Assembly: GCA_011375465.1 (NCBI GenBank)
Contig: DRZV01000093.1
Span: forward strand, 1 to 47,784
From: Neomoorella mulderi
GTDB taxonomy: Bacteria > Bacillota > DSM-521 > Neomoorellales > Neomoorellaceae
Direction: 5' to 3'
DNA length: 47,784 nt
Under the pieces are notes generated by a model. It saw only the letters and a program-made list of their open reading frames with translations. It did no database searches and was not told where the DNA came from. The position numbers and the translations under genes were made by a program. Numbering within the stretch: position 1 is the first letter of the stretch; each line of letters starts with the position of its first letter. Below are positions 13,431 to 38,149 of the stretch, in pieces.

Positions 13431-14680
13431 GCGATTCCACCACATCCCGCCCAGAACCAGCCCTTTCAGGCTTGCAGAAAATCTACTGGGCGGAAAGGCA
13501 TATGCCTGTTCTAAACCGCTTGCGAGAAGAGCTGGAAAAAAGTCAGCCCTTTAAAGACAGAAGGATAGGCATATGTCTCCACCTGGAGGCCAAAACCGCT
13601 TTTTTGGCTTTGGTCTTAAAGGCCGGGGGTGCGGAGGTGGCCATCTGCGGTTCCAATCCCCTTACCACCCAGGACGATGTGGCTGCTGGATTGGCCAGCC
13701 TGGGGGTGAAAGTATTCGCCCGCAGGGGGGCCAGCGCGGAAGAATACAGGCATTACCTCCACAGAGTGCTGGACATCTGCCCCCACCTCCTCATCGACGA
13801 TGGGGGGGACCTGGTGAGCGCGGTGCACGGGGAGAGGCGGGAACTGATAGGGCATATCATAGGGGGAGCAGAGGAGACCACCACCGGGGTTAGAAGGCTA
13901 AGGGCTATGGAAAGGGAAGGGGTCCTGGGTTTTCCCATGGTGGCGGTCAACAATGCCTGTTGCAAGTATCTCTTCGATAACCGCTACGGGACGGGACAAT
14001 CCACCTGGGATGGCATAATGAGGGCTACCAATTTGAGCATAGCAGGTAAGAGGGTGGTGGTGGCCGGGTTCGGATGGTGCGGCAAAGGTATCGCCCAGAG
14101 GGCCAGGGGTTTAGGCGCCAGGGTAATAGTGACCGAGGTGGACCCCATCAGGGCCAATGAAGCCCTGATGGAAGGATACGAAGTGATGCCCATGGCAGAA
14201 GCCGCCCTTTTGGGGGACATATTCATAACAGCCACCGGATGTGCAGGGGTTATAGGGGAGAAACATTTTAAATCCATGAAAGATGGGGCGCTTTTGGCCA
14301 ATGCCGGCCACTTCGATGTGGAGGTGGACGTGGCCGCTCTGCGCCGGCTGGCCCGGGAAGTCAGAAGGGTCAGGGAGGGGGTGGAGGAATTTCTCCTGGA
14401 AGGGGGGAAAAGGCTCTATCTTCTGGCAGAAGGGCGGCTGGTGAACATAGCGGCTGCTGACGGACATCCTGTGGAGATCATGGATCTTTCCTTTGCCCTT
14501 CAGACCCTTTCCCTGGAATACCTGTTGCAGCAGGAGGGAAAACTGAAGCCAGGGCTCTACCCTGTTCCCCTGGAGGTGGACTGCCGAGTAGCCCAGCTAC
14601 GGCTGGAGGCCTTGGGGGTCAGGATCGACGAGCTTACCCAGGAGCAAAAAGAATATCTTTCCAGCTGGCAGATCACCTAA
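13427..14680 (+). CDS. ahcY: Adenosylhomocysteinase
   Basis: [34 protein letters not shown], the NAD motif [10 protein letters not shown], and GHFDVE. The ATG at 13427 has RBS aaggagagag and overlaps the mtnP stop (ATGA). The ORF-track start at 13361 lies inside mtnP. Confidence 0.92.
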
Positions 14681-15591
14681 GGGCGTTCTCCATAAAGGTC
14701 AACCGGCAGCGGCCAGCATCCAGGCATGCCTTTATCCCCAAAGGCAAGGTGGCCTGTAGCAGAGAGTGGCCTGCAGGCAAGCCGTAACAGGAAGGTTTGC
14801 CCTTTAAATAATGGTAAAGGACATCTGGTGCCTGGGGGCACCTGGAGAAGAGGCCACAGGCAAAGCCAGAGGCGTGATCTAGCTTGCCCGCCAATTTCAA
14901 CTGGGCCAACATGCGATCCAGGCGGTAGGCGGGCTCCCCTATTTCTTCTAGAAAGAGGATTTTGTTCCGGGTATCTATTTCAAAAGGGGTGCTCAGGGTG
15001 GCCACCACCAGGGACAGGTTGCCTCCCACCGGAGGCCCTTTTGCCTCACCGGGGTGGAGGCAGATGGGGGGGGAGGCAGTTCCGGAGGTGGGAACAGGGT
15101 CCCCAAAGGAGCATTGCAGCTCGAGGCTTGAAAGAAGCCTTTTTCCGTATAAAGGGGCAGTTGGGGAGCCCCCAGCTCGGGACAGACCATTGGGCCGTGG
15201 AAAGTCACCAGGCCCAGGGTTTTATATAAGGCCAGCAGTAGAGCTGTTACGTCGCTGTAGCCGATGAATATCTTGGGGCGGTTCCTCAAAAGGGAAAGAT
15301 CCAGATGGGGGAGCAGGCGCAGGCTGCCGTAACCCCCCCTCAGGGCTATAAGGGCCTTTACCCTGGAGTCCAGCACGAAATTGTGGAAATCTTCAGCGGC
15401 CAGCTCTTCCCGCAGATGGCCTTTGGCTTCGCCCACCGATCTGCCCAGCATTACTTTAAAGCCCAACCGGGTCAGGAGCAGCTGGGCCCTTTTCAAGTAA
15501 CCGGCATCCTCCAGGGGGGGCTGGCCGGGGCCCATATGGCCACCGTATCCCCCGGGTTTAGAGCCCGGGCCTTCAGAGGGGAAAAGCCCAT
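14673..15591 (-). pseudogene. ldcA: LD-carboxypeptidase (peptidase S66, LdcA-like) with two frameshifts
   Basis: Three consecutive frames carry the family in order: MGFSPLKARALNPGDTVAIWAPASP, then PLEDAGYLKRAQ...FIGYSDVTALL..., then ICLHPGEAKGPPVGGNLSLVVATL.... The frame changes fall at a G7 run (15524-15530) and a G8 run (15066-15073). The span is 919 nt (3n+1). Confidence 0.7.
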
Positions 15592-17300: not shown

Positions 17301-17864
17301 ATGGAAAACGTCTATTTTACCGTTGCCCGGGAAACGGCTGTGGAGATAAAGGTGGAGCGCTCCCGCTTTATAGCTTTTGCCCGGGAGGTCAAAGACGAGG
17401 AGGAGGCCAGAAGTTTTATCTCCCGGATACAGGAGGAGCACCGCCAGGCTACCCATATCTGTTTTGCCTACCGGATAGGGCAGGGTAAAGGTGAGAGGGT
17501 GTATTACAGCGATGCCGGGGAACCCAGCGGCACAGCAGGCAGGCCTATCCTGGGGGCCATATGCAGTTTGGGTCTTACCAATGTGGCGGTGGTGGTGGTC
17601 CGCTATTTCGGAGGGAAGAAGCTGGGGATAAGGGGTCTCATAGAAGCCTACGGCACCGCCGCCCGCAGGGCTTTGGAAGAAGGGGGAAAGGTGCAGCGCC
17701 TACCCACCAGGGAGGTGGAATTCCACTGCGATTATGCAGAACTGAACCGGCTGCTGCACCACATCCGCAGCCATGGGGGAGAGGTGCTGGAGGCTGTCTA
17801 CGGAGAGAAGGTTTACCTCAGGGCTGCCTTGCCCCTCCAGGCTCCGCCCTTTCCGGGAACCTAA
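17301..17864 (+). CDS. yigZ: YigZ/IMPACT-family protein (UPF0029)
   Basis: IKVERSRFIAFA, ATHICFAYR, DAGEPSGTAGRPIL and VVVVRYFGG.KLG motifs. Confidence 0.8.
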   Translation: MENVYFTVARETAVEIKVERSRFIAFAREVKDEEEARSFISRIQEEHRQATHICFAYRIGQGKGERVYYSDAGEPSGTAGRPILGAICSLGLTNVAVVVVRYFGGKKLGIRGLIEAYGTAARRALEEGGKVQRLPTREVEFHCDYAELNRLLHHIRSHGGEVLEAVYGEKVYLRAALPLQAPPFPGT

Positions 17865-19108
17865 GATTTCAGATGGCGCCAGAGGAGATAGAGGGCGTAT
17901 TGAGAGGCGTGCCATTTTATGTTTTCCCTGTCTCCCACAAAATTCCTCTTCTCCACCTGAACCTTTCCCTGGCAATCTATCCCCATGTATACCAAACCCA
18001 CTGGCTTTTCTTCCGTACCCCCGGTGGGTCCGGCTATACCGGTTATGCCTATGCCCACGTGGGCGGAGAATTTTTCCCGCATCCCCTTGGCCATAGCCTC
18101 CGCCACCTGGGGGCTTACGGCTCCGTAGATCTGGATCAGCTCCAAAGGCACTCCCAGAAATTTTATTTTAACCTCATTGCTGTAAGCCACTATCCCTCCC
18201 AGGAAATAATCGGAGCTTCCGGGCACGTTGGTTATCCTGTGGCCCAGCAATCCTCCGGTACAGGACTCGGCGGTGGCCAAGGTCATCCCCTTTTCCCGCA
18301 AGAGCTTTCCCACCGCTTCTTCTAAAGTGTCCTGATCGTAGCCGAAAATATGATCCTTCAGGCGCTGGTGTATTATCTCTTCCAAGGGGGCGAACAGCCT
18401 GCGGGCCTCCTCATGATCCGAAGCCCTGGCGGTGAGCTTTATGTGGACCTCCCCTTTGGTAACCAGGGTGACCACAGCGGGGTTGCAGCTCTGGAGGAGC
18501 TCCCCTAAAGCCGAGGCCACAGCGGCCTCGGGCAGACCCATGACCTTGATGATGCGGGAAGTTATTACAGCCCTTTTCTCCCCTCTGGCCTGGAGGAGCT
18601 TGTTCAGCCGGGGCAGGAGCTCCTCCTTCACCACGGCTGCGAACTCCTGGGAAGGTCCTGGCAGCAGCACATATATCTTACCTTCATGTTCTAAATAGGC
18701 TCCCGAGGCTGCCCCCACAGGATTGGGAAGGGCCTCGGCTCCCCGGGGGAGCAGGGCCTGTTTGTAAACCCGGGGAGAGGGTTTTGTACCCCGGCGCCAG
18801 GAGTACGATTCAAGGTTTTCCCTGGCCTCGAGGTTTTCCACCAAGGGGAGCCCCAGGGTTTGGGCCAAGGCCTCCCGGGAGAGGTCGTCTTCGGTGGGTC
18901 CCAATCCCCCTCCTATTATGATAAGGTCTGCCCTTAAGCTGGCTTCCCTTATGGCTTCCCTTATGCTCTCCAAATCGTCGCCTACCACCACCTGGCGGGA
19001 AAGCTCTATCCCCAGATCCGCCAACTCCCGGGCTAAAAAGGCCCCGTTGGTATTGATCAGATGGCCCAAAAGCAGCTCTGTGCCGGTAAAAATAACTTCT
19101 GCCCTCAT
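17861..19108 (-). CDS. cinA: CinA: MoCF-binding domain plus nicotinamide-nucleotide amidohydrolase (PncC) domain
   Basis: MRAEVIFTGTELLLG..INTN, GGLGPTEDD, and C-terminal ATAESCTGGL...VSPQVAEAMA.G. Its stop overlaps the yigZ stop. Confidence 0.9.
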   Translation of the reverse strand: MRAEVIFTGTELLLGHLINTNGAFLARELADLGIELSRQVVVGDDLESIREAIREASLRADLIIIGGGLGPTEDDLSREALAQTLGLPLVENLEARENLESYSWRRGTKPSPRVYKQALLPRGAEALPNPVGAASGAYLEHEGKIYVLLPGPSQEFAAVVKEELLPRLNKLLQARGEKRAVITSRIIKVMGLPEAAVASALGELLQSCNPAVVTLVTKGEVHIKLTARASDHEEARRLFAPLEEIIHQRLKDHIFGYDQDTLEEAVGKLLREKGMTLATAESCTGGLLGHRITNVPGSSDYFLGGIVAYSNEVKIKFLGVPLELIQIYGAVSPQVAEAMAKGMREKFSAHVGIGITGIAGPTGGTEEKPVGLVYMGIDCQGKVQVEKRNFVGDRENIKWHASQYALYLLWRHLKS

Positions 19109-19420: not shown

Positions 19421-20560
19421 GTGAACAACGGCAGAACCCGCTGGGGCGCATGGCTATTATTGTTGGTATTTTTGGCAGGGGTGGCGGTCACGGCAGGTTT
19501 TTATCACATCGCCGGGGGGAGAAATAAAACTCTGGGGTACCAGATGGCCGAAGTGGCCCCTGGTCCTGTCACTGTGAATGCCGGTTGGGGTCCGGAGACC
19601 ATAGCGGATATAGCGGAGAAGGCAGGTCCGGCGGTGGTCAGGATAGATACGGAGAGCAGCAGCAATCCCCTTTTGGAGGATCCCTTTTTCCGTTATTTCT
19701 TCGGCGAACCCTACAGCCCTTTGCCCAGGGTTCAGAGGGGTTTGGGGTCAGGCTTTATAATCTCCCCCGACGGGTATATCCTGACCAATCAGCATGTGAT
19801 CCAGGGAGCTACCCAGGTCAAGGTTACGGTTATAGGTTTTGATAAACCCTTCCCGGCTCGGGTGGTGGGTGCAGATGCCCAACTGGATTTGGCAGTCTTA
19901 AAGATAAACGCGGATCGACCCCTACCTTATCTGGCTTTAGGGGACGACAGCCAGGTGAGGGTGGGGGACTGGGTAGTGGCCATAGGCAATCCCTACGGTC
20001 TAGACCATACAGTAACGGTAGGGGTGGTGAGCGCCAAGGGACGCCCCATAGACGTACAGGGGCGTCATTATGAAAATTTGCTCCAGACCGATGCCTCCAT
20101 AAACCCGGGGAACAGCGGAGGGCCCCTGCTCAACTTGAAGGGGGAGGTCATAGGGATAAACACGGCCATAAAGGCGGACGCCCAGGGTATAGGCTTCGCC
20201 ATACCCAGCAGCACGGTAAAACCTGTATTGAACGACCTGATGACCAAAGGCAAGATCGCCCGGCCCTGGTTGGGGGTCATGCTGACCTCCCTTACTCCCG
20301 AGGTGGCCGAATTTTTGGGGCTGCCCGGTCCTGAAGGGGCTCTAGTGGGAGAAGTGGTGGCGGGGAGCCCGGCGGCCGAAGCTGGATTGCAGAAATACGA
20401 CGTGATCTTAGAAGTGGATGGCCAGAAGGTAAAGGACGCTGCAGACCTGGTCAACAAGATCCAGTCCATGAAGATCGGTCAGAAGGTCAAATTGAAGGTA
20501 TTCCGGGGGGGTAAGACTCTGGAGATAAACGCCACCTTGGGCGAAAAGCCGAGCCAGTAA
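19421..20560 (+). CDS. htrA: HtrA/DegP-family serine protease with PDZ domain
   Basis: N-terminal transmembrane helix, GSGFIIS.DGYILTN.HV, DLAVLKI, the active-site motif GNSGGPL, and a C-terminal PDZ region (RPWLGV...GSPAAEAGL..DVI). Confidence 0.9.
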   Translation: MNNGRTRWGAWLLLLVFLAGVAVTAGFYHIAGGRNKTLGYQMAEVAPGPVTVNAGWGPETIADIAEKAGPAVVRIDTESSSNPLLEDPFFRYFFGEPYSPLPRVQRGLGSGFIISPDGYILTNQHVIQGATQVKVTVIGFDKPFPARVVGADAQLDLAVLKINADRPLPYLALGDDSQVRVGDWVVAIGNPYGLDHTVTVGVVSAKGRPIDVQGRHYENLLQTDASINPGNSGGPLLNLKGEVIGINTAIKADAQGIGFAIPSSTVKPVLNDLMTKGKIARPWLGVMLTSLTPEVAEFLGLPGPEGALVGEVVAGSPAAEAGLQKYDVILEVDGQKVKDAADLVNKIQSMKIGQKVKLKVFRGGKTLEINATLGEKPSQ

Positions 20561-20580
20561 CAGCCTATAAAAAACAAGAG

Positions 20581-20606
20581 CCCTGGGATTTCCCAGGGTT
20601 TTTTAT
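20581..20606 (+). terminator. Rho-independent terminator of htrA
   Basis: ccctggga/tcccaggg stem followed by ttttttatttt. Confidence 0.8.
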
Positions 20607-20614
20607 TTTATAAA

Positions 20615-20859
20615 ATGGTGCGCTTTCGTCTCCACGATCTTTTAAAGGATCCTTATGGTAAGGGATACCACCTCATTCTCTGCCGCAACGTCATGATATA
20701 TTTCACCCCTGATGTGCAGAGGGATATTTACCGTCGGTTTTATGAGTCCTTTCATCCAGGGGGAGTATTGTTTATCTTATCGGGGCTACCGAGACCATGT
20801 TTTACCACCGAGAGCTGGGATACATAAGGGAGGCGGCTTGGTTCTACCGCCGGCCCTAG
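20615..20859 (+). pseudogene. cheR: CheR methyltransferase remnant: C-terminal third only, also frameshifted
   Basis: YHLILCRNVMIYFTPDVQRDIYRRFYESFHPGGVLF matches the end of the CheR SAM-binding domain. After a frame change near 20771-20782 the family continues as LIGATETMFYHRELGYIREAAWFYRRP, ending at TAG 20857-20859. The N-terminal two thirds are absent, and the fragment abuts the htrA terminator. Confidence 0.7.
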
Positions 20860-20877
20860 CAGCCTGCGGGGGGAAGG

Positions 20878-21520
20878 ATGCGGGTTTGGGAACGGCTGGA
20901 TCCTGTCCATCTGGACACATTAAAGGAAATAGGCAACATCGGAGCGGGTCATGCTGCTTCTGCCCTGGCCGCCATGCTCGGGGTAAAGATAAATATGAAG
21001 GTGCCCCAGACCGGTATTCTCCTTTTGCCGGAGATTCCCACCCTGGTGGGGGGAGAGGAGGATCCGGTAGCCTGCGTGGAGTTCACCGTAAGGGGGGGAA
21101 GCCCCCAGCAAGATATTCTCCTTTTAACCCAGGAGAGCGCCTTTCTGCTGGTGGATATGTTCCTGAGCAGGGCTGCGGGATCTACCCGGGAACTGGACGA
21201 TATGGGCATTTCGGTGCTGACCGAGGTGGGCAACATACTGACCGGGTCCTTTTTAAACGCCTTTTCTCAGTTCTGCAATTTGACCTTCATGCCCAGCGTA
21301 CCGGCCTTCGCCTACGATATGCTGGCCGCGGTTTTGAGCTCAGCTTTTCTGGAGGGGGGCTATTTTTCTGACCATGCCCTGATAATCGAGACCGAGTTTT
21401 TCAGCCAGGATATCCGCTTGCAGGGCCACTTTTTTCTCATACCGGAGAGGCGAAGCCCTGGAAAAGATATTTTCTTCTTTAGGGATGGGCTTAAAATTAA
21501 AGAAGGGTAGCAGGAGGTAG
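20878..21520 (+). pseudogene. cheC: CheC-like CheY-P phosphatase with a frameshift near the 3' end
   Basis: LDTLKEIGNIGAGHAASAL and LTEVGNILTGSFLNA are the two CheC repeats. At about 21444-21450 the family C-terminus GEALEKIFSSLGMGLKLKK moves to another frame (stop 21518-21520), while the listed ORF ends in unrelated residues. The span is 643 nt (3n+1). Confidence 0.6.
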
Positions 21521-21525
21521 GGAGA

Positions 21526-21855
21526 ATGGCAAAAAAGTTTTGGTGGTGGATGACGCCGCTTTTATATGGTTACGAAGTGGTTGGAGAGGCGGAAAACGGG
21601 ATAAAAGCGGTGGAGCTCTATAGGGAGCTCAAACCGGGCGTTGTCACCATGGACATAACCATGCCGGAAATGGACGGTATAGCTGCGGTGAAAGCCATAA
21701 GGCAGATAGACCCTAATGCCCGGATAATAATGTACAGCGCCGTGGGGCAGCAGATGATGGTAATGGAGGCCATCCAGGCGGGTGCTAAAGATTTCATAGT
21801 AAAGCCCTTTCAGCAGGACAGGGTCCTGCAGGCCCTGCAGAGGGCTTTGAGCTAG
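21526..21855 (+). pseudogene. cheY: CheY-like receiver with a scrambled N-terminus (acidic pocket lost)
   Basis: The downstream part is canonical: GYEVVGEAENG...TMDITMPEMDG...SAVG...VKPF. The first 14 codons read MAKKFWWWMTPLLY. The canonical VLVVDDAAF is encoded at 21537-21563 in the +1 frame, and about 32 nt that normally follow it are missing. The product is 109 aa, against roughly 120 for a normal CheY. Confidence 0.65.
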
Positions 21856-21859
21856 GGGT

Positions 21860-22839
21860 ATGGCCATGGGAGAGGTGCTTTCTCAAGCGGAGATAGACGC
21901 CCTGTTGCAGGCCATCAGCAGCGGGGAAGTGCAGATGGAGGACCTGAAGGAACAGGCTGAGGAGGGTAAGGTCAAAAGATACGACTTCCGCCGGCCCAAC
22001 AAATTTTCTAAGGAGCAGTTGCGCACCCTTTACATGATCCATGAAAACTTCGGGAGGATGGTGGCCAATTTCCTTTCCGCCTATTTGAGGGCCAACATCC
22101 AGGTGAAAATCATCTCCGTAGAACAGATGACCTACGAAGATTTTGCCCTCTCCTTGCCCACCCCCACTTTGATGAACATCTTCCCCCTGGATCCCCTGAA
22201 GGGTTCTGGGGTTCTCCAGGCAAATATGAACTTTGTATTCCCCATCATAGATCTCCTATTCGGGGGCAGGGGGGAGATGCTTCCCATAACCCGGGATTTC
22301 ACGAGATAGAGCTTCACGTGTTAAAGCGCTTATCCAATCGCCTGCTGGAGCAGCTTGTCTACTCCTGGTCCGATCTTCAGAAATTTACCCCCAAACTGGA
22401 GGGGATAGAGACCAACCCCCAGTTTGCTCAGGTGATTTCCCCCAACGAGACCGTAGCGGTTATAACCCTTTCCACTAAAGTGGGCCAGCAGGAAGGCCTA
22501 TTGAATTTATGCCTCCCCTATATGATGCTGGAGCCTCTCCTCTTTCGCCTTTCCACCAGCCAGTGGCTGGCTTCCACCAGCAATGGGGAGGAGAGGGGGA
22601 AATATCGGCTAACCCTGGAGAAGATCCTGGCCCAGGTGCCTGTGGAGCTGATAGCTTATTGCGGAAGGACAAAACTCAGGGTGAGGGACTTTATCCAGCT
22701 TCGGGAAGGGGATATCATCACGCTGGATCAGGAGATCGATAAAGATCTGGAGCTTTACGTGGACGGAAAGTTGAAGTTTAAAGTACAGCCGGGGATCCAA
22801 GGGGGAAAGCTGGCAGTTCAGATAACGGAGGTGCTTTAA
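21860..22839 (+). pseudogene. fliM: Flagellar motor switch protein FliM, frameshifted
   Basis: The N-terminus LSQAEIDALL is the CheY-P binding motif, and the two ORF-track pieces are 21860-22309 and 22318-22839. The expected ...RDFTEIELHVLKRLSN... requires one more G at about 22303 (acgagatag versus acgGagatagag). The span is 980 nt (3n+2). Confidence 0.8.
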
Positions 22840-23863
22840 GTGTCCGAGTTTCTCTCTCAAGAAGAGATCGACGCCCTGTTAAAGGGTGATGACGGGGTTC
22901 AGGAGCAGGAGCCGGAGTTACATTTGACAGATATAGAGAGGGATGCCCTGGGAGAAATCGGAAATATAGCCATGGGCAGTGCCGCCACGGCCATGTCCCA
23001 GATATTGAACAAGAGGGTCTCAATAAACTACCCTCCATACCTTTGTCACCACCTTAAAGGAGCTCTTTGAGGGCTTCCATGTCCCTTTCGTTCTGGTGGA
23101 AGTGGAATTCGTCGAGGGTTTAAATGGGGTCAACCTATTGGTGCTGGAGGAGAGCGACGCTGCCGTGATAGCCGATCTGATGATGGGAGGGGATGGGCTG
23201 AAGGGGCAAGGGGAGCTGGATGACATCAGAAAGAGCGCTGTGGCTGAGGCCATGAACCAGATGATGGGCAGTGCGGCCACTGCCATGGCCACCATGTTCA
23301 GGAGGAGCGTCAAGATAAGTCCCCCCGGTTGTTCTTCCATAAAGCTGGATAAGGGGGATTACCCCCCTCCTTGGCCTTTAGAGGAAAAGGTGATGGTGCG
23401 TTTCAAGATGGTTATCGGAGATCTCATAGACAGCTACATAGTCCAGGTTATACCCCCTGAGGTGGCTAGAGCCCAGGTAGCTCTGCTCACGGAAGGCCAG
23501 GGATCCCACCAGGAGGAAGCGCCTGCCCCAGATGAAGGAGTATCTCTTCCCCCTAAAGCTCTCCCTCCGCCAGAGACTGGGAAGGTGTATGGATCCGCCA
23601 GGAACATAGACCTGATTTTAGATGTGCCCCTGGAGATAGAGGTGATATTGGGATCTGCTTCTAAAAAAATCGGGGAAATCTTGAATCTATCCCCTGGGGC
23701 GGTGGTGGAACTGGACAGGTTTATAGAGGAGCCTGTGGAAATATGCATAAACGGGACCCCCATAGCCAGGGGAGAAGTGGTGGTGGTGGTGAATGAAAAT
23801 TTTGGAGTAAGGATTATCCAGATACTGGATCCCTATGAGAGGATAAACCGGTTGAAAAGATAA
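22840..23863 (+). pseudogene. fliY: Flagellar switch protein FliY (CheC-like domain plus FliN domain), frameshifted
   Basis: LSQEEIDALL, ALGEIGNIAMGSAATAMS, then a frame change between about 23024 and 23038. The family continues as TFVTTLKELFEGFHVPFVLVEVEFVEG in the second ORF piece. The C-terminal FliN domain is LDVPLEIEVILG...[20 protein letters not shown]. The span is 1024 nt (3n+1). Confidence 0.75.
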
Positions 23864-23865
23864 AG

Positions 23866-23889
23866 ACCGGAAGCCCGAAGGCTTCCGGT
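23866..23889. terminator. Hairpin between convergent fliY and SASP genes
   Basis: 10-bp stem accggaagcc / ggcttccggt with loop cgaa. There are no strong T-tracts. Confidence 0.5.
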
Positions 23890-23895
23890 GGAGGG

Positions 23896-24079
23896 TTAGG
23901 AGCGTCTGTTTTTCATGGCTTCCTCCGCCTTTTCGATGGCCAGACGTACCAGGTTGCCGCAATCTCTGGTAGGGTACACTTCCCCACCCTTCCCGCATCA
24001 CCGTATCGTAAACACCCAGTTCTTTAGCCAGCTCGTATTTCAGCTCCTCAGACATGATGCCTCTACGCCTGCGGGCCAT
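23896..24079 (-). pseudogene. Alpha/beta-type small acid-soluble spore protein-like gene, frameshifted
   Basis: [35 protein letters not shown], then the frame is lost. Removing one nt near 23968-23975 gives ..[25 protein letters not shown], ending at TAA 23896-23898. The span is 184 nt (3n+1). The 130-aa ORF-track product is an artefact of the shift. Confidence 0.6.
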
Positions 24080-24198: not shown

Positions 24199-24676
24199 TT
24201 AGTACACCCTTACCCTATCGGCTCCGTGATCCCTCATTATGCGGTTGGCCTGATCTGCATATTGATCCTCGCAGTGGACAGAGACCAAAATTTTTCCTTG
24301 ACGGATCTTCTTCTTCGTATTGACGGCCTTCTTCTTCCGGAATACCCCAGTCTATTAAACCACCTGCGATACCCCTCGCGGCAGCGCCCGATAAGAGCCC
24401 CGCTATGGGTCCGGCGGCCACCAGGGGCCCCAGTCCTGGGATGAACAGGGCGCCTGCCCCTGCTGCCAGCCCTGCAAGCCCTCCCAGGACTCCACCGGTG
24501 GCGATGCCGTCGGCTATCCCGCCACCGCCTTCCATGGTCATGGCTTCACCCTGCTGGCCTTCCCGGCCCCGGGCCAATATGGATATCTCTTTATCGAAAC
24601 CAGCTTTTCTTAAGTCCTCCACCACTTCCCTGGCCACCTGTTCATTTTTGAACACACCCACCACTGTCTTGGCCAT
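24199..24676 (-). pseudogene. YflT/general-stress-protein-like gene, frameshifted
   Basis: MAKTVVGVFKNEQVAREVVEDLRKAGFDKEISIL, a Gly-rich middle, and GIPEEEGRQYEEE. The expected C-terminus [35 protein letters not shown] (stop 24199-24201) is in another frame from about 24300. The span is 478 nt (3n+1). Confidence 0.65.
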
Positions 24677-24792: not shown

Positions 24793-25908
24793 ATGGAATA
24801 CGATGTAATAATCTGTGGGGCTGGCCCCGCCGGCAGCACCTGCGCTCGGTTTTTGGCGGGCCAAGGAGCTGAGGTTTTGCTCCTGGATAAAGCCGTTTTT
24901 CCCCGTCCCAAAATCTGCGGAGGTGGCCTTACCAGGGGGGCGGTGAAGGAACTGCCGCCGGGTTGGGAAGGTTTAAAAGAAGGTGAAATTAGGCACCTGG
25001 TTTTTCTTTTTAAAAATGAAGAGCCGGTGGAGATAACCTTTACCCAGCCTGTGGTCTATACCGTCTCCCGAACCCTTTTGGACCATTGGCTGCTGGAGCA
25101 AGCCCTGGAAGCAGGAGCCAAATTGAGGGAGGGCTTTCGGGTGCTGGGCATAGAAGAGGATTCCAAGGGGACGAGGGTATGGGGCCCCAAGGGGGAAAGC
25201 CTGAGGGCCAGATATGTGGTGGGGGCCGACGGGGCCCACAGCGTTGTCCGCCGCCATTTAGATTTATCAATTGAAAGGGGTTTTTGCTTAAATCTGGAAG
25301 TTCCCAAGCCCCAGGTATTTTCCGGGGAAAAGATCTATTTTACCTACGGATACCTGCTAGGTTATGGGTGGATTTTCCCCAGGGGAGCTCACCTGAGCGT
25401 AGGTATGGGGGCTTTCTTTAATTGTAAAGTCAATTTTAAACCTTATCTAGAGAAATTTTGCCGCAAGGTGGGCATAGATCTCCCCTCAATTCCGTGGCAG
25501 GGGGCTTGTCTTTCTTTCCTTCCAGAAGGGGAAGTCCGGCTCCACACGGATAGGGTTCTGCTCATAGGAGAGGCTGCGGGTTTGGTAGACCCTTTCACCG
25601 GAGAAGGGATTTCCCATGCCCTGCGCAGCGCCCGATGGGCAGCCGGGATCTTGATGAAGGCCTTGAGGGGAGGGGGCGGGTTGGAAGAATATGGCGAAAA
25701 GCTGGGGAGGGAGATGCTCCGCCATATCAGGTATGCCCGCTTCATCGCCAGGACCGTTTATACCTGGGCTCCCTGGATACATAGGTTGCTGGGCCTGCGC
25801 CCCCAAATTGTAGCTAAACTCTTAGGGGTGATGGCGGAGGAAAACACCTATCTCGATCTGTGGGGATACCTGACCGAGAATTATCCCCTCTTTCGCCAGG
25901 CTGTTTGA
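24793..25908 (+). CDS. FAD-dependent oxidoreductase, geranylgeranyl reductase family
   Basis: The YDVIICGAGPAGSTCA dinucleotide-binding motif, KICGGGL, GADGAHS, and GEAAGLVDPFTGEGI. Confidence 0.8.
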   Translation: MEYDVIICGAGPAGSTCARFLAGQGAEVLLLDKAVFPRPKICGGGLTRGAVKELPPGWEGLKEGEIRHLVFLFKNEEPVEITFTQPVVYTVSRTLLDHWLLEQALEAGAKLREGFRVLGIEEDSKGTRVWGPKGESLRARYVVGADGAHSVVRRHLDLSIERGFCLNLEVPKPQVFSGEKIYFTYGYLLGYGWIFPRGAHLSVGMGAFFNCKVNFKPYLEKFCRKVGIDLPSIPWQGACLSFLPEGEVRLHTDRVLLIGEAAGLVDPFTGEGISHALRSARWAAGILMKALRGGGGLEEYGEKLGREMLRHIRYARFIARTVYTWAPWIHRLLGLRPQIVAKLLGVMAEENTYLDLWGYLTENYPLFRQAV

Positions 25909-26811
25909 TCAGCCCGGCAGCAGTTTTTCTAATATCCCCGCCAGAATCCCCGTGAAGAGCAGGAATACCAAGGACGAAGCGAGATTGAACAGGGTATGGA
26001 AGTGGGCTATCTGGAAGCCAGGATCCCGGCTTAAAAGGGGGAGGAGGGGCGCCAGGAGGAGCAGGAGGGGAAAGAACATCAGTGCTCCCAGGATATTAAC
26101 CAGCAGGTGGGCCAGGGCAGTCCTCTGGGCAGCCCGGGAAGAGAAGAGGGAGGCCAGGAGGCCGGTGGCGCAGGTGCCTATATTGGCCCCCAGGACCACG
26201 GCCAGGGCCGAAAGGGCGGAAAGGAATTTCTGTTCGAACAGGACCATGGTGATCCCGGTCACCACGCTGCTGGAATGGAGGCCAGCGGCCATGAAGATAC
26301 CGGCCAGGAAGCCCCTAATCGGATCCAGGTGGGGGAGGAGGAAAAGCCAGGCCTTGCTCTTCTGCCAGGCCTCCAGGGAGTTTTCCAGAAGCTCCAGGCT
26401 GAAAAACGTGACCTCCACCCCCACCAGGGCCAGACCGCTGGCTCTGCCCCTGGGCCACAGGATCAGGACAAGCCCCATCAGGATGAGGGGGCAAGCCCAT
26501 GCATGGAGGTCCAAAGCCATGAGCTGAACCGTGAGGCAAGTGCCCACATTGGCCCCCAGGATTATCCCCAAGCTCTGGTCAAAGCTTATCTAGCCCCCGT
26601 CCACCAGGCCTATGGTGAGGACGGTGACGGCTGTGCTGGACTGCACCAGGGCCGTGGCCAGGGTGCCCCAAAGAAAGGCGGCGTAGGGGTTGGACGCTGC
26701 TCTTTCTATTAAATGCCTCGCATGTCCTTTGGCCCCCTGCCCCAGGCCGTATTTTAAAAGCTGGAGCGAGGCCAGCAATAAGGATGTGCCCGCCAGCAAT
26801 TTATACAACAC
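25909..26811 (-). pseudogene. Na+/phosphate cotransporter-family (PF02690-like) membrane protein with an in-frame TAG
   Basis: The two ORF-track pieces are in the same frame and are joined by TAG (26590-26592): ...ALVQSSTAVTVLTIGLVDGG*ISFDQSLGIILGANVGTCLTV.... This is the conserved NaPi repeat, and the second repeat LGANIGTCATG is present. Confidence 0.7.
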
Positions 26812-28377: not shown

Positions 28378-30356
28378 AGCGGGTAGGCGTGTTCGTCTGC
28401 CACTGCGGCTCCAATATTGCCGGGGTGGTGGATGTAAAAAAGGTGGCAGAGGCAGCCAAAGAATTCCGGGACGTGGTCTTTGCCACCGATTACGAGTATA
28501 TGTGCTCTGATCCTGGACAGGAGCTCATCCGCAAGGCCATCAATGAGCACCAGCTCAACCGAGTGGTGGTGGCCTCCTGTTCCCCTCGGCTTCACGAGGA
28601 GACCTTCAGGAGATGCTGTGAGAGCGCGGGCCTAAACCCCTACCTCTTTGAGATGGCAAACCTCAGGGAACAGGTGGCCTGGTGCCACGCCAAGGATAAG
28701 GAGGCAGCCACCGCAAAGGCCATCGAACTGATCAGGGGTGCGGTGGCCAAGGTAAGGCGGAGCGCTCCTTTGACTCCCGGGGTAGTCCCCATCACCAAAA
28801 AGGCCCTGGTCATCGGCGGTGGCATAGCGGGGATCCAAGCTGCCCTGGATATTGCGGATGCCGGCTATAAAGTGACCCTGGTGGAAAGGGAGCCCACCAT
28901 AGGGGGAGCCATGGTAAAGCTGGATAAGACCTTCCCCACCCTGGACTGCTCTGCCTGAATAAGCACCCCCAAGATGGTTGCCGCGGCGCGGCATCCCAAT
29001 ATAGAGCTTTTGACTTACTCAGAAGTGGAAGACGTATCCGGTTATGTGGGCAATTTTGAAGTCACCATCAGGAAGAAGGCCCGGAAGGTGGACGCCACCA
29101 AATGCCGGGGATGCGGTGTGTGCTGGGAAAAATGTCCCACCAAAGTGGATAGCGAATTCGAACAGGGCCTGGCCAAGAGAAAGGCCATCTATATCCCCTT
29201 CGCCCAGGCCGTGCCGGCCATACCAGTGATAGATCAAGAGCACTGCCTGTATTTCACCAAGGGAAGGTGCGGTGTGTGCCAGAAGGTTTGCCCGGCCAAG
29301 GCCATAGACTACGAGCAACAGGACGAGATCATCAAGGACAAGTTCGGGGCAATAATAGTGGCCACGGGCTTTGAACTGTTCAACTGGAGGGAGGTTTACG
29401 GCGAATACGGTTATGGCAAGTATCCCGATGTGATCGACAGCATGCAATTTGAGCGGCTCAACGTTTCCTCCGGTCCCACCGGCGGCAAAATCCTCAGGCC
29501 TTCCGACGGCAGGGAGCCCAAAACGGTGGTATTCATAAAGTGTGTGGGTTCCCGGGATGAAGCCAAGGGTAAGAGCTACTGTTCCCGGGCCTGTTGCATG
29601 TACACCGCCAAACATGCTCATCAGGTTCTGGAAAAGATACCCGGAGCCCAGGTTATAGTCTTCTACATGGACATTCGCACCCCGGGCAAGGCCTACGAAG
29701 AATTCCTGGAGAGGACTATACACGAAGGGGCCATCTATGTAAGGGGGAGGGTAAGCAAGGTATTCCCGGAAGGGGATAAGCTCATAGTCAAGGGAGAAGA
29801 CACCCTATTGGGTCGCCCTGTAGAGGTGGCTGCCGATCTGGTGGTGGTGGTCCCTGCCATGGTGCCCAGCCGGGGATGGGATAAGCTGGCCAAAATGCTG
29901 GGGTTGCAGACAGATAAGGACGGCTTCTTCCAGGAGGCCCATCCCAAACTGAGGCCGGTGGAGACCTTCACCGCAGGGGTATTCCTGGCGGGCGCCTGTC
30001 AAGGACCTAAGGACATCCCCGATACGGTAGCCCAAGCCAGCGCGGCCGCCGCCAAAGCAATTCTGTTGCTCTCCAAGGACGAGATGGCTACCGAGCCCAT
30101 GGTGGCTTCTGTAGACCAGAGCGTGTGCGCCGGATGCGGTCTCTGCGTGGAGGTCTGCCCCTACAAGGCCATCTCCTTGACCACCATCGCCGAGAGGGTG
30201 GGCGGCAGAGAGATCACCAGGCAGGTGGCCACCGTCAATACCGGCCTCTGTCAGGGTTGCGGCAGCTGCGCCGTCACCTGCCCCTCCAGTGCCATGAATC
30301 TCAAGGGCTTCACCAATGAACAAATTCTGGCGGAGGTGGACGCCATATGTCTATAG
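28374..30356 (+). CDS. hdrA: Heterodisulfide reductase subunit A, with an in-frame UGA (probable selenocysteine) at 28956-28958
   Basis: [12 protein letters not shown], the FAD motif [32 protein letters not shown], the ferredoxin motifs [33 protein letters not shown] and [12 protein letters not shown]. The two ORF-track pieces are in the same frame. Confidence 0.85.
28976..28996 (+). promoter_or_regulatory. Candidate SECIS hairpin for the hdrA UGA
   Basis: ggttgccg / cggcatcc stem (one T-T mismatch) with loop cggcg, starting 20 nt after the U of the UGA. Confidence 0.45.
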
Positions 30357-30784
30357 CTGCCGAGGAGAAACAGTGGGAACCCAAAATAGTGGCCTTTTGC
30401 TGCCACTGGTGTTCCTATGCGGCTGCCGATCTGGCTGGTTTAAGCCGCCTGCAGTATCCTCCCAATGTGAGGATCATAAGGGTTCCCTGTTCCGGCAGGG
30501 TGAACCCCCAGTTCGTGCTGAGGGCTTTCCAGCGGGGGGCCGATGGGGTGCTGGTGGCGGGGTGACACCCCGGAGAATGCCACTATGGTAGTGGCAATTA
30601 CTATGCCCGCCGGCGCCTCTTGCTTCTGCAAAAGGTTTTACAATTCATGGGTCTGGAGCCGGAAAGGTTTCAAGTCAAGTGGATATCGGGTTCAGAAGGA
30701 CCCCGGTTCGCTCAAGCTATCCAGCAGATGACCGAACAGGTTAAGGCTCTAGGACCCAATAGAAAGTTGAGGGATCGGGTATGA
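30347..30784 (+). CDS. mvhD: MvhD/FlxD-like iron-sulfur subunit, with an in-frame UGA (probable selenocysteine) at 30563-30565
   Basis: [28 protein letters not shown], and [29 protein letters not shown]. The frame stays open to TGA 30782-30784, which overlaps the next ATG (ATGA). The ORF track shows only the first 72 aa. Confidence 0.8.
30578..30596 (+). promoter_or_regulatory. Candidate SECIS hairpin for the mvhD UGA
   Basis: tgccacta / tagtggca 8-bp stem with loop tgg, starting 15 nt after the U of the UGA. It can be extended with a bulge (aat...aatt). Confidence 0.5.
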
Positions 30785-35464: not shown

Positions 35465-38149
35465 ATGCATCCATGGCACAGCTGGACTCTCCATGAAGTT
35501 TTGGAAAAATTGGCTACCGACCCGACAGAGGGCCTCAGCTCCGCGGAGGCCTAGGCCCGCCTGGAAAAATACGGGCCCAATCTCCTTCAAGAAGGTCCGC
35601 CCAAAGGGCCTTGGCCCATTCTGCGGGAGCAGTTCACCGGGGCCCTGGCCCTCCTCCTCCTGGCGGCCGCGGCGGTGTCGTTTCTCCTGGGAGAGTATAA
35701 AGACGGCCTTGCCATCTTGGTAATCGTGGTTTTAAACGCCCTTCTCGGTTTTATCCAGGAATACCGGGCTGAGAAGGCGATGGAGGCGCTCAAAAAATTT
35801 TCTGTCCCCCGGGCAAAGGTGCTGCGGGAGGGCAGAATTCAGGAAATATCCGCCCAGGAGCTGGTCCCTGGAGACGTCTTCTTCCTGGAAGCGGGTGATG
35901 TGGTGCCTGCGGACGGCCGCCTCCTGGAGGCCGCCAACCTCAGGTTGCTGGAGGCCATCTTGACCGGTGAATCGGTCCCGGTGGATAAAGATCCTTCCGC
36001 CATAATTCCGGCAGAGGCACCTTTAGGCGATCGGAATAACATGGTCTACAAGGGGACCACTGTGGCTTTCGGCCGGGGAACAGCCGTGGCCACCGGTATG
36101 GAGACAGAGCTGGGGCGCATCGCCGGTATGATCCAGAGGGTGGAGGCCGAGCCCACCCCTTTTCAACGGCGCATGGCCGCACTGGGCCGCACTTTGGGAT
36201 TGATAGCCTTGGCGATTGTGGTAGCGGTGACCCTGTTGGGGATTTTACGGGGCGAGCACCCGAAAACCATGTTTCTCACTGGAGTGAGCCTGGCGGTGGC
36301 CGCTGTGCCGGAAGGGCTCCCCGCTGTGGTCACCATTACCCTGGCCCTGGGGGCCCAGAAGATGCTGAGGCGTCGCGCCCTTATCCGCAGGCTTCCCGCT
36401 GTAGAAACTTTGGGCTCGGTCACCAAGATATGCACCGACAAGACCGGAACCCTAACCCAGAACCGGATGACCGTCACCGCCCTGGCCCTGCCCGTCCGGG
36501 ACCTGGACAGGAGGGTTGAGGTTTTTTCTTTTTCCGGGGAAAAGCCCGCCTCTTTGCCCCCGGCAGCCCATTTTTTGCTGGGGGCCGGTGCCCTCTGCAA
36601 CGATGCCGTCTTAACCCCAAAGGGGGAGGAGTTTTCTTATATAGGGGATCCCACTGAAGGCGCCCTGGTTATGGCCGCCATGCAGCTGGGTTACTCCAAA
36701 CCCCAACTGGAAGGGGCCCTTCCTCGCCTGGCGGAGTTACCTTTTTCTTCTGAGCGGAAGCGGATGACCACCATTCACCAGGTGGGCGGGAACTGCCGGG
36801 ACCTCTGGGCGGAGTTTTTGGGTAGGGGAGATCCGCCGCCCCACGTCCTTTTCACCAAAGGCGCCTTCGACCTCCTTTTACAGGCCTGCAACGGAGTATG
36901 GGTAAACGGCAAAATAGAACCCCTGGATGAATGGCGAAAGGAGCTGGAGCAGACCAATGGGGAGCTCTCCCAGGCAGGTCTGCGGGTGTTGGCGGTGGCC
37001 TTCCGTTTTTTAGCTGCCCTGCCCCAGGAGGTTACAGAGGAACTGGAAAAAGACCTTGTTTTCCTGGGGCTGGTGGGAATGATGAATCCTTTGCGGCCAG
37101 AAGCCAAGGGGGCGGTGGAGACCTGCCGTCAAGCGGGAATCGACCCGGTAATGATTACCGGCGATCACCCCCTCACTGCCCTGGCCATTGCCCGGGAACT
37201 GGGCCTTGATACAGGGCGCATTTTAACAGGCAGCCAACTGGACGGATTTTCGCCGGAAGATCTGGTCCAAATTGCTGAAGAGGTGGCTGTCTATGCCCGG
37301 GTTTTCCCCTCCCATAAGCTCAAGATAGTGGAAGCTTTACAGCGCAGAGGGCATGTGGTGGCCATGACCGGCGACGGGGTAAATGACGCTCCTGCCTTGA
37401 AGAAAGCCGACATCGGGGTGGCCATGGGAGTTGCCGGAACCGATGTGGCCAAAGAGGCTGCCGATATGGTGCTTCTGGATGATAATTTTGCCACCATTGT
37501 AGCTCCAGTGGAAGAAGGCCGGGTGATCTACGACAACATCCAAAAGTTCCCTAAATATCTAATGGCCACCAATCTGGGCGAGATCCTAATCATTTTTGCC
37601 GGTATTTTATGTGGAACGCCAGTGCCCTTGGCGCCGCTCCAGATCCTCTGGATCAATCTGGTCACGGACGGTCTTCCGGCCCTCGCCCTGTCGGTGGAGC
37701 CGGCTGAGGAAGGGGTCATACGCCGCCCCCCACCTGACCCCAAGGCCAGCCTTTTCGCCGGGGGTTTGGGCACGCATATTCTCTGGGTTAGCGCCTTGAT
37801 GGCAGCCACATGTCTTGGTGTCGGTTATTGGTTTTGGCAGCTGGGCCAGCCTTCCTGGCAGACAATCCTTTTCACCACCCTTGTCTTCGCCCAATTGGCC
37901 CATGTACTGGCTGTGCGCACAGGGCGGATTCCCCTTTTAAAGGCCGGTCTCCTCTCCAATCCCGCCGCTTTGGGGGCCGTCCTGTTGAGCATGGCCTTAC
38001 AGCTGGCGGTTATCTATCTGCCTCCTCTGCAGGAGGTCTTCCGTACTGTTTCTTTGACCCCTACCCAGCTCCTCCTCTGTTTCTTTCTGGGCAGCCTGGT
38101 ATTCTGGGTAGTAGAGGCCGAGAAATGGTTCCGGTGCCCTCGTCCCTGA
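35465..38149 (+). pseudogene. P-type ATPase, type IIA (SERCA/PMR1-like Ca2+/Mn2+ pump) with an in-frame TAG at codon 30
   Basis: From the ATG at 35465 (RBS gggggtga): MHPWHSWTLHEVLEKLATDPTEGLSSAEA-TAG(35552-35554)-ARLEKYGPNLL..., the standard N-terminus of this family. It continues in frame into the 824-aa ORF with LTGESVPV, CTDKTGTLTQN, MITGDH and GDGVNDAPALKKA. Confidence 0.8.

Follow-up and report, generated by a model that had tools for sequence, protein, structure and literature searches.

Five consecutive plus-strand genes on contig DRZV01000093.1, cheR, cheC, cheY, fliM, and fliY, raise the question of how a set of chemotaxis and flagellar-switch genes came to stand alone with every member broken. 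We refer to the whole 47.8-kb stretch studied (contig positions 1 to 47,784) as the window; it represents an undescribed, uncultured Moorellaceae lineage known only from metagenomes, and the five genes occupy positions 20615 to 23863. Comparison with related loci makes it very likely that this block is the in situ 3' stump of the ancestral Moorellaceae flagella/chemotaxis (fla/che) supercluster, which was deleted upstream and whose remaining genes are decaying. The type of event, a recent loss of motility, is well known and ordinary, and it is unusually cleanly mapped here.

We identified the five genes by Pfam searches of their open reading frame (ORF) fragments, by tblastn with orthologues from four relatives, and by DNA alignments with five relatives. 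The plus strand of the block breaks up into eight ORF fragments, in which Pfam recognizes CheR, CheC, a receiver domain, FliM in two pieces, and FliY in two pieces. The relic proteins are 63 to 84% identical to Moorella orthologues by tblastn, and each of the five genes carries a disabling lesion when measured against intact orthologues. An initial annotation, made from the sequence alone, had described the five genes as consecutive, recognizable, and all broken, and Pfam, tblastn, and the DNA alignments bear this out. Its remark that no flagellar, che, or methyl-accepting chemotaxis protein (MCP) gene flanks the block holds across the whole window, where Pfam scans and precomputed gene calls detected no further gene of these kinds. 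Nothing flagellar was found either in the ~9.7 kb past the window's right end that are visible on a contig from SRR7787785 (L044). The annotation had htrA upstream and a spore-protein gene downstream; both are there, and the spore-protein gene is itself frameshifted.

The lesions agree with those first proposed, namely, a cheR reduced to its last third with a frameshift near 20775, frame shifts at about 21447 in cheC and at about 23030 in fliY, one G missing from fliM at about 22303, and a scrambled N terminus in cheY (Table 1). In cheR, the Pfam profile match covers only positions 119 to 173 of the 195-position S-adenosylmethionine (SAM)-binding domain, and tblastn follows the gene from 20612 to 20776 in one frame and from 20770 to 20856 in another. 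DNA alignment attributes the shift to a 5-bp tandem duplication (TTATC/TTATC) at 20772 to 20781. The product lacks what a functional methyltransferase needs, as the CheR_N domain is gone and the SAM-binding domain largely so. The lesion in cheC is the mildest among the five genes. The inserted nucleotide corresponds to a 1-nt gap in the same alignment column in all five relatives; by tblastn, residues 1 to 190 are in frame and the C terminus is shifted, and the change is confined to the last ~17 residues, which are replaced. As it stands, the cheC ORF stops at 21510, and the ancestral frame would stop at 21520. The corrected frame reads EALEKIFSSLGMGL, and relatives have AALEKILQSLGLQL.

Two lesions affect cheY, a loss of 1 nt within codons 2 to 4 (21529 to 21537, with an A-run at 21531 to 21536) and a 32-nt deletion at 21565/21566. 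Their net effect is -33 nt, and a 109-aa ORF therefore stays open. Helix alpha1 has been lost, and strand beta1 with its DD acidic pocket is out of frame, giving MAKKFWWWMTPLL in place of MGKKVLVVDDAAF. By tblastn, residues 2 to 14 lie in one frame and residues 26 to 120 in another, with residues 15 to 25 (11 codons) missing, and the Pfam Response_reg match begins only at profile position 21 of 111. The product does not qualify as a functional receiver domain, since VLVVDD is out of frame; the phospho-Asp (TMDITMP) and Lys (VKPF) motifs are still there. For fliM, tblastn places residues 1 to 145 and 133 to 323 in different frames, with Pfam FliM positions 1 to 109 in one ORF and positions 116 to 189 plus FliMN_C in the other. 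For fliY, residues 1 to 63 and 61 to 378 lie in different frames, and the matches to CheC (two) and FliMN_C fall in separate ORFs. Neither FliM nor FliY is encoded as a single polypeptide; each is in two ORFs, with the frameshift lying between domains.

To place the block, we compared its right flank with eight loci: Moorella sp. ACPs (CP136420.1), Moorella thermoacetica (CP017019.1), Neomoorella sulfitireducens, Neomoorella mulderi (LTBC01000003.1), three metagenomic contigs of the closest lineage, and the metagenome-assembled genome (MAG) DJKA51 (JASKKH010000003.1). The same order is found in all eight: flhA-flhF-flhG-pilZ-sigD, two small genes, two flgF/G genes, a minus-strand TPR gene, and then cheD-cheR-cheC-cheY-fliM-fliY. 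Past fliY, all eight have a 59-aa small acid-soluble spore protein (SASP) gene followed by yflT, both on the minus strand. Beyond yflT, most relatives have a flavin adenine dinucleotide (FAD) oxidoreductase gene, a minus-strand sodium/phosphate (Na/Pi) cotransporter gene, and a series of hdr/mvhD-like genes; in some relatives the FAD or Na/Pi gene is absent, and a Ku gene is inserted in MAG DJKA51. The window's right-hand gene neighborhood matches that of the relatives exactly. The five genes are therefore in their ancestral place, terminal in the cluster.

This position corrects one expectation. The initial annotation had placed fliM-fliY-cheY inside a very large fla/che operon; these genes do belong to a supercluster, but synteny shows them to be terminal here, not internal. 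In Bacillus subtilis, fliM-fliY-cheY are internal to a 27-kb fla/che operon. The protein families are the same, including the Firmicutes-typical FliY architecture (CheC-like plus FliN-like), whereas in Moorellaceae cheD-cheR-cheC-cheY-fliM-fliY form the terminal segment, past sigD and flgF/G. Because of this terminal position, a deletion from upstream could leave exactly these genes. The corrected FliM is 72 to 77% identical to FliM of Moorella/Neomoorella and a nearby metagenomic lineage, with none closer among 5.8 billion proteins, and it matches best the relatives' own FliM, not a divergent paralogue. For HtrA, the next-best match is 71%, and a scan of reference genomes gave 70% as its best match.

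The left flank is conserved as well. HtrA of the window is 69 to 71% identical, over its full length, to Moorella/Neomoorella HtrA, and the order Impact_N-cinA-htrA is conserved among relatives. In N. sulfitireducens, M. thermoacetica, N. mulderi, and MAG DJKA51, cheW-cheA-cheB lie 0.2 to 7 kb past htrA. The first three have a few unrelated genes after htrA and then an MCP gene, cheW, cheA, and cheB; MAG DJKA51 has a polysaccharide deacetylase gene and then cheW, cheA, cheB, flgM, flgN, flgK, and flgL. In N. mulderi, htrA (246347 to 247510) and cheR (181966 to 182739) are on the same strand and 63.6 kb apart, and in MAG DJKA51, 59.7 kb separate the end of htrA (31174) from the start of cheR (90882) in the same orientation. 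The spacing between htrA and cheR in the window is 54 nt. The window thereby shares with Moorella and Neomoorella both the run cheR-cheC-cheY-fliM-fliY followed by SASP and yflT genes and the upstream anchor Impact_N-cinA-htrA. Their genes are intact behind ~60 kb that carry che and flagellar genes at both ends, whereas the window is without that interval and each of its remaining genes is disabled. With both flanks syntenic, the relic occupies the orthologous position and is neither a stray copy nor a fragment brought in by transfer.

The junction itself can be read closely. The hairpin behind htrA (20576 to 20603) is strong, with a folding free energy (dG) of -23.3 kcal/mol and z of -4.7. 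Relatives have an equivalent hairpin and T-run right after htrA, and the window hairpin is therefore the native htrA terminator. Homology to cheR sets in at 20612 to 20615, directly past the terminator, with an internal Met codon equivalent to residue 176. The left deletion end point lies within about 5 nt past the htrA terminator, and the right end point lies inside cheR. The junction shows no repeat and no remnant of an insertion sequence, and an exact search for the 39-nt junction in JGI metagenomes gave no match. The initial annotation had taken the start of cheR directly after the htrA terminator for a deletion junction, a view supported by the synteny, the htrA-cheR spacing, and the native terminator. 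It had also suggested alignment with the fla/che cluster of relatives, which maps the end points to the htrA terminator and cheR codon ~176. By this comparison, about 60 to 64 kb appear to have been lost from a few bases past the htrA terminator to cheR codon ~176, by several deletions or possibly in a single event.

The state of the relic genes bears on when this happened. For sites invariant among four relatives, we compared the five relic genes with eight intact neighboring genes. Changes at invariant sites were as frequent in the relic genes (16.3%) as in the intact neighbors (17.5%; Fisher P = 0.51), and the ratio of invariant-site to variable-site change was the same in both gene sets (0.45 versus 0.51). 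A relative-rate test with the window, a Moorella-clade contig (L005), and MAG DJKA51 gave branch ratios of 1.5 to 2.5 for the relic genes versus 2.0 to 3.9 for controls; it was not properly rooted, as the window is the outgroup of the trio for most genes, and it is superseded by the invariant-site test. The cheR fragment, which is short (79 sites), was the exception to the lack of excess in that test. Thus, neither the invariant-site test nor the branch-length ratios revealed a substitution signature of relaxed selection in the relic genes. Motifs are kept as well, namely, LSQxEIDALL in FliM and FliY and the E-x2-N sites of CheC. As conservation of the relic equals that of its intact neighbors, purifying selection acted normally on these genes for almost the whole history of the lineage, and by the same substitution counts their inactivation appears recent relative to the split from Moorella. 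The original description of a relic caught before complete erosion is apt, given the invariant-site conservation and the motifs kept.

Frameshifts may also come from sequencing or assembly, in which case the five genes would be intact in the organism. Several lesions do lie at short runs (A6 in cheY, GG in fliM, and AAA in fliY), and a neighboring G-run (24929 to 24934) varies in length among assemblies. Judging reproducibility from assembled contigs, we used the adjacent HtrA protein to look for further assemblies. It led to two independent short-read metagenome contigs of the same organism, one of 93.7 kb in ENA ERZ27245603 and one in Logan SRR5216258. Their identity to the window is 99.93% along 21 and 12 kb, and single-nucleotide polymorphisms (SNPs) separate the window and the two contigs from one another, giving three haplotypes. 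All lesions were found again in these two assemblies, which have different accessions and their own SNPs, and the ORFs of both are broken in the identical way, into 210/109/149/173/76/254 aa. The window's right end has matches of 99.97 to 100% on contigs from SRR7787785 and SRR5216258, and the lineage is thus present in at least three sequencing data sets. Moreover, the 5-bp duplication, the 32-bp deletion, and the loss of two-thirds of cheR are not slippage-type errors, and no intact version above 77% identity was found among 5.8 billion proteins. About 35 other genes in the window read cleanly, including all the housekeeping ones; dnaG, rpoD, plsX, the mraZ-murF division (dcw) cluster, hdr-type genes, htrA, and cinA are intact. 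Since the lesions recur in SNP-distinct assemblies, include nonhomopolymer changes, and sit among clean housekeeping genes, assembly error is excluded for practical purposes, and we give this explanation next to no weight. The initial annotation had named assembly errors as a possible source of the indels; their recurrence in SNP-distinct assemblies indicates otherwise.

Some points weigh against a stump left by deletion of the supercluster. The htrA-cheWAB segment and the tail of the fla cluster are on different contigs in N. sulfitireducens; adjacency is not universal, and the ancestral arrangement for the window's lineage is a reconstruction. The htrA-cheR interval of relatives was inspected over the first and last ~10 kb of its 60 to 64 kb. 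The next-best HtrA and FliM in the databases are 71% and 77% identical, so that a single deletion event is no more than a possibility. The genome beyond the window could also hold a second flagellar locus, and some Firmicutes have extra sets of che genes; the organism might then still be flagellated, with a complete fla/che system elsewhere and a redundant copy here. We consider this very unlikely, because the block lies at the position of the supercluster tail in every relative examined, with both flanks conserved, because its FliM is closest to the FliM of those same relatives and is no divergent paralogue, and because nothing flagellar appears in the window or the adjoining ~9.7 kb. Retained function, with the fragments working as split subunits or as a new nonflagellar CheC/CheY/FliM/FliY module, would fit the open cheY ORF (lesions totaling -33 nt), an amino acid conservation as good as that of functional neighbors, and the presence of all fragments in three haplotypes. 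However, the cheY product is without strand beta1 and the DD metal-binding pocket, CheR is without its N-terminal domain and the greater part of its SAM-binding domain, a strong terminator stands directly upstream with no promoter, and every needed partner (CheA, MCPs, FliG, and the basal body) would have lain in the interval deleted relative to relatives. Unrelated neighboring genes decay in the same way, and recent inactivation is a simpler account of the high conservation. Function of the fragments is thus extremely improbable.

For the deletion stump, we propose the following course. One or more deletions totaling about 60 to 64 kb would have taken everything from the htrA terminator to cheR codon ~176. 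Judged from relatives, the losses would include an MCP gene, cheW, cheA, cheB, flgM, flgN, flgK, and flgL at the htrA end, and flhA, flhF, flhG, pilZ, sigD, flgF/G, and cheD at the cheR end; the unseen middle of ~40 kb would have carried the remaining flagellar genes. The surviving cheR fragment, cheC, cheY, fliM, and fliY would then have been left with no partners and no upstream promoters, behind an intrinsic terminator. A consensus scan of the plus strand from 20560 to 23863 found no sigma-70-like promoter. With partners and promoters lost and a terminator upstream, the genes would be free of selection and gather small slippage-type indels. The relic genes would not be expressed, and the lineage is very probably nonmotile. 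Synteny on both flanks supports the initial view of a leftover from motility loss. The window haplotype also has an extra in-frame GTG (Val) at 23777 to 23779, within an otherwise invariant motif of the FliN-like domain of fliY, that is found neither in the two other haplotypes (L001 and L002) nor in relatives. As this codon is private to the window haplotype, neutral change in the pseudogene is continuing.

Table 1. Coordinates of the relic block and its flanking features in the window
Feature	Position	Strand	Evidence and remarks
htrA (S1C serine protease, PDZ domain), intact	19421..20560	+	Pfam; left neighbor of the deletion, conserved
Native htrA intrinsic terminator (12-bp stem + T-run)	20576..20613	+	Terminator scan, fold
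cheR remnant	20615..20859	+	Residues ~176-255 of 257; Pfam, tblastn, DNA alignment
cheC pseudogene	20878..21520	+	Pfam CheC; +1 nt at ~21446-21452
cheY pseudogene	21526..21855	+	Pfam Response_reg, tblastn, DNA alignment; -1 and -32 nt
fliM pseudogene	21860..22839	+	Split into 149-aa + 173-aa ORFs; G lost at 22303/22304 (DNA alignment)
fliY pseudogene	22840..23863	+	Split into 76-aa + 255-aa ORFs; extra A at 23024-23027 (DNA alignment)
Terminator-like hairpin (on minus strand) between convergent fliY and SASP genes	23866..23889		Terminator scan
Alpha/beta-type SASP gene	23899..24079	-	+1 nt at ~23962; tblastn in two frames, DNA alignment
yflT-like stress-protein gene	24202..24676	-	+1 nt at ~24307; Pfam YflT, tblastn in two frames, DNA alignment
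Na/Pi cotransporter gene	25909..26811	-	In-frame TAG at 26590-26592; translation versus L005 orthologue

Decay extends beyond the motility genes. The frameshift in the SASP gene gives a 130-aa read-through ORF versus a 59-aa protein in all relatives, and the last ~35 residues of yflT lie in another frame. In the Na/Pi cotransporter gene, the TAG replaces an Ala of relatives (LVDGG-TAG-ISF versus LVDGGAISF), and in two other assemblies the gene is called in two pieces, of 212 and 73 aa. The idea of a motility-loss relic stands for the broken fla/che genes and is refined by these and other genes decaying too. About 10 of the ~47 genes in the window, about a fifth, are disabled. For a free-living bacterium this is a large share, which suggests that selection has relaxed across the board, possibly on sporulation too. 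A SleB-like hydrolase gene (Pfam Hydrolase_2), which lies between Impact_N and cinA in six relatives, is absent at that position (17861 to 17864) and from the whole window; its absence and the damage to the SASP gene are a hint that sporulation and germination functions are decaying.

Further genes in and near the window show irregular reading frames. The FAD-dependent oxidoreductase gene (24793 to 25908, plus strand) is intact in the window, and an extra G in the G-run at 24929 to 24934 frameshifts it in both L001 and L002; either a pseudogene that is polymorphic or an error in the length of the G-run could explain the difference. The protein is unusually divergent, at about 46% identity to Moorella orthologues. 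An LD-carboxypeptidase gene (Peptidase_S66; 14673 to 15535, minus strand) is spread over three frames by at least two frameshifts, with the same split in the ENA contig. A P-type cation ATPase gene (35465 to 38149, plus strand) has a premature TAG at 35552 to 35554, codon ~30 (GLSSAEA-TAG-ARLEKYGPN), and from a GTG at 35675 the frame is open again for 824 aa but lacks the N-terminal domain; the same 824-aa call is made in SRR7787785. About 8 to 9.5 kb past the window's right end, a murA paralogue (EPSP_synthase family) of the dcw cluster, at 18267 to 19519 of contig L044, is frameshifted into 232 + 179 aa.

Not every in-frame stop codon is a lesion. A TGA at 28956 to 28958 in an hdrA-like gene (TLDCSA-TGA-ISTPK) and another at 30563 to 30565 in an mvhD/FlpD-like gene (VAG-TGA-HPGECHY) were considered and rejected, as relatives annotate single proteins of 660 and 145 aa, respectively. 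From their selenocysteine-type contexts, both codons probably encode selenocysteine. Pyrrolysine at the two in-frame TAG codons was likewise rejected, because TAG is an ordinary stop in neighboring genes (the cheR fragment, cheC, and cheY).

Recent loss of motility left flagellar pseudogene remnants in Shigella, Yersinia pestis, Burkholderia mallei, and Bordetella pertussis. Like the window, these Proteobacteria have deletions and frameshifts in the flagellar regulon, recognizable relics, and a raised load of pseudogenes among other dispensable genes. They are host restricted, often show insertion-sequence expansions, and had scattered genes hit, whereas the window represents an uncultured Firmicute of a thermophile family, has no insertion sequence visible at the junction, and, extended to the whole genome, would have lost nearly the whole regulon. 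We found nothing relevant in the literature on flagella or pseudogenes in Moorella. The Moorellaceae are otherwise known for free-living, motile, spore-forming acetogens.

The locus offers a cleanly mapped recent loss of motility in a Firmicute: the end points of one ~60-kb gap are placed to within a few bases, and the tail genes left behind then decay by small indels. Annotators should note that genes called as CheC, CheY, FliM, or FliY in MAGs from this lineage are fragments of pseudogenes and no sign of chemotaxis. The load of pseudogenes beyond the motility genes, spore-related ones included, is a more interesting lead than the stump itself. It is possible, though we hold it only tentatively, that the flagellar stump is one symptom of a lineage-wide genome erosion in which sporulation is going along with motility; a recent move to a sheltered life, possibly as an obligate syntroph or otherwise dependent on a partner, would agree with this. 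If true genome-wide, the decay seen here would represent early reductive evolution in a family whose acetogens are of industrial relevance.

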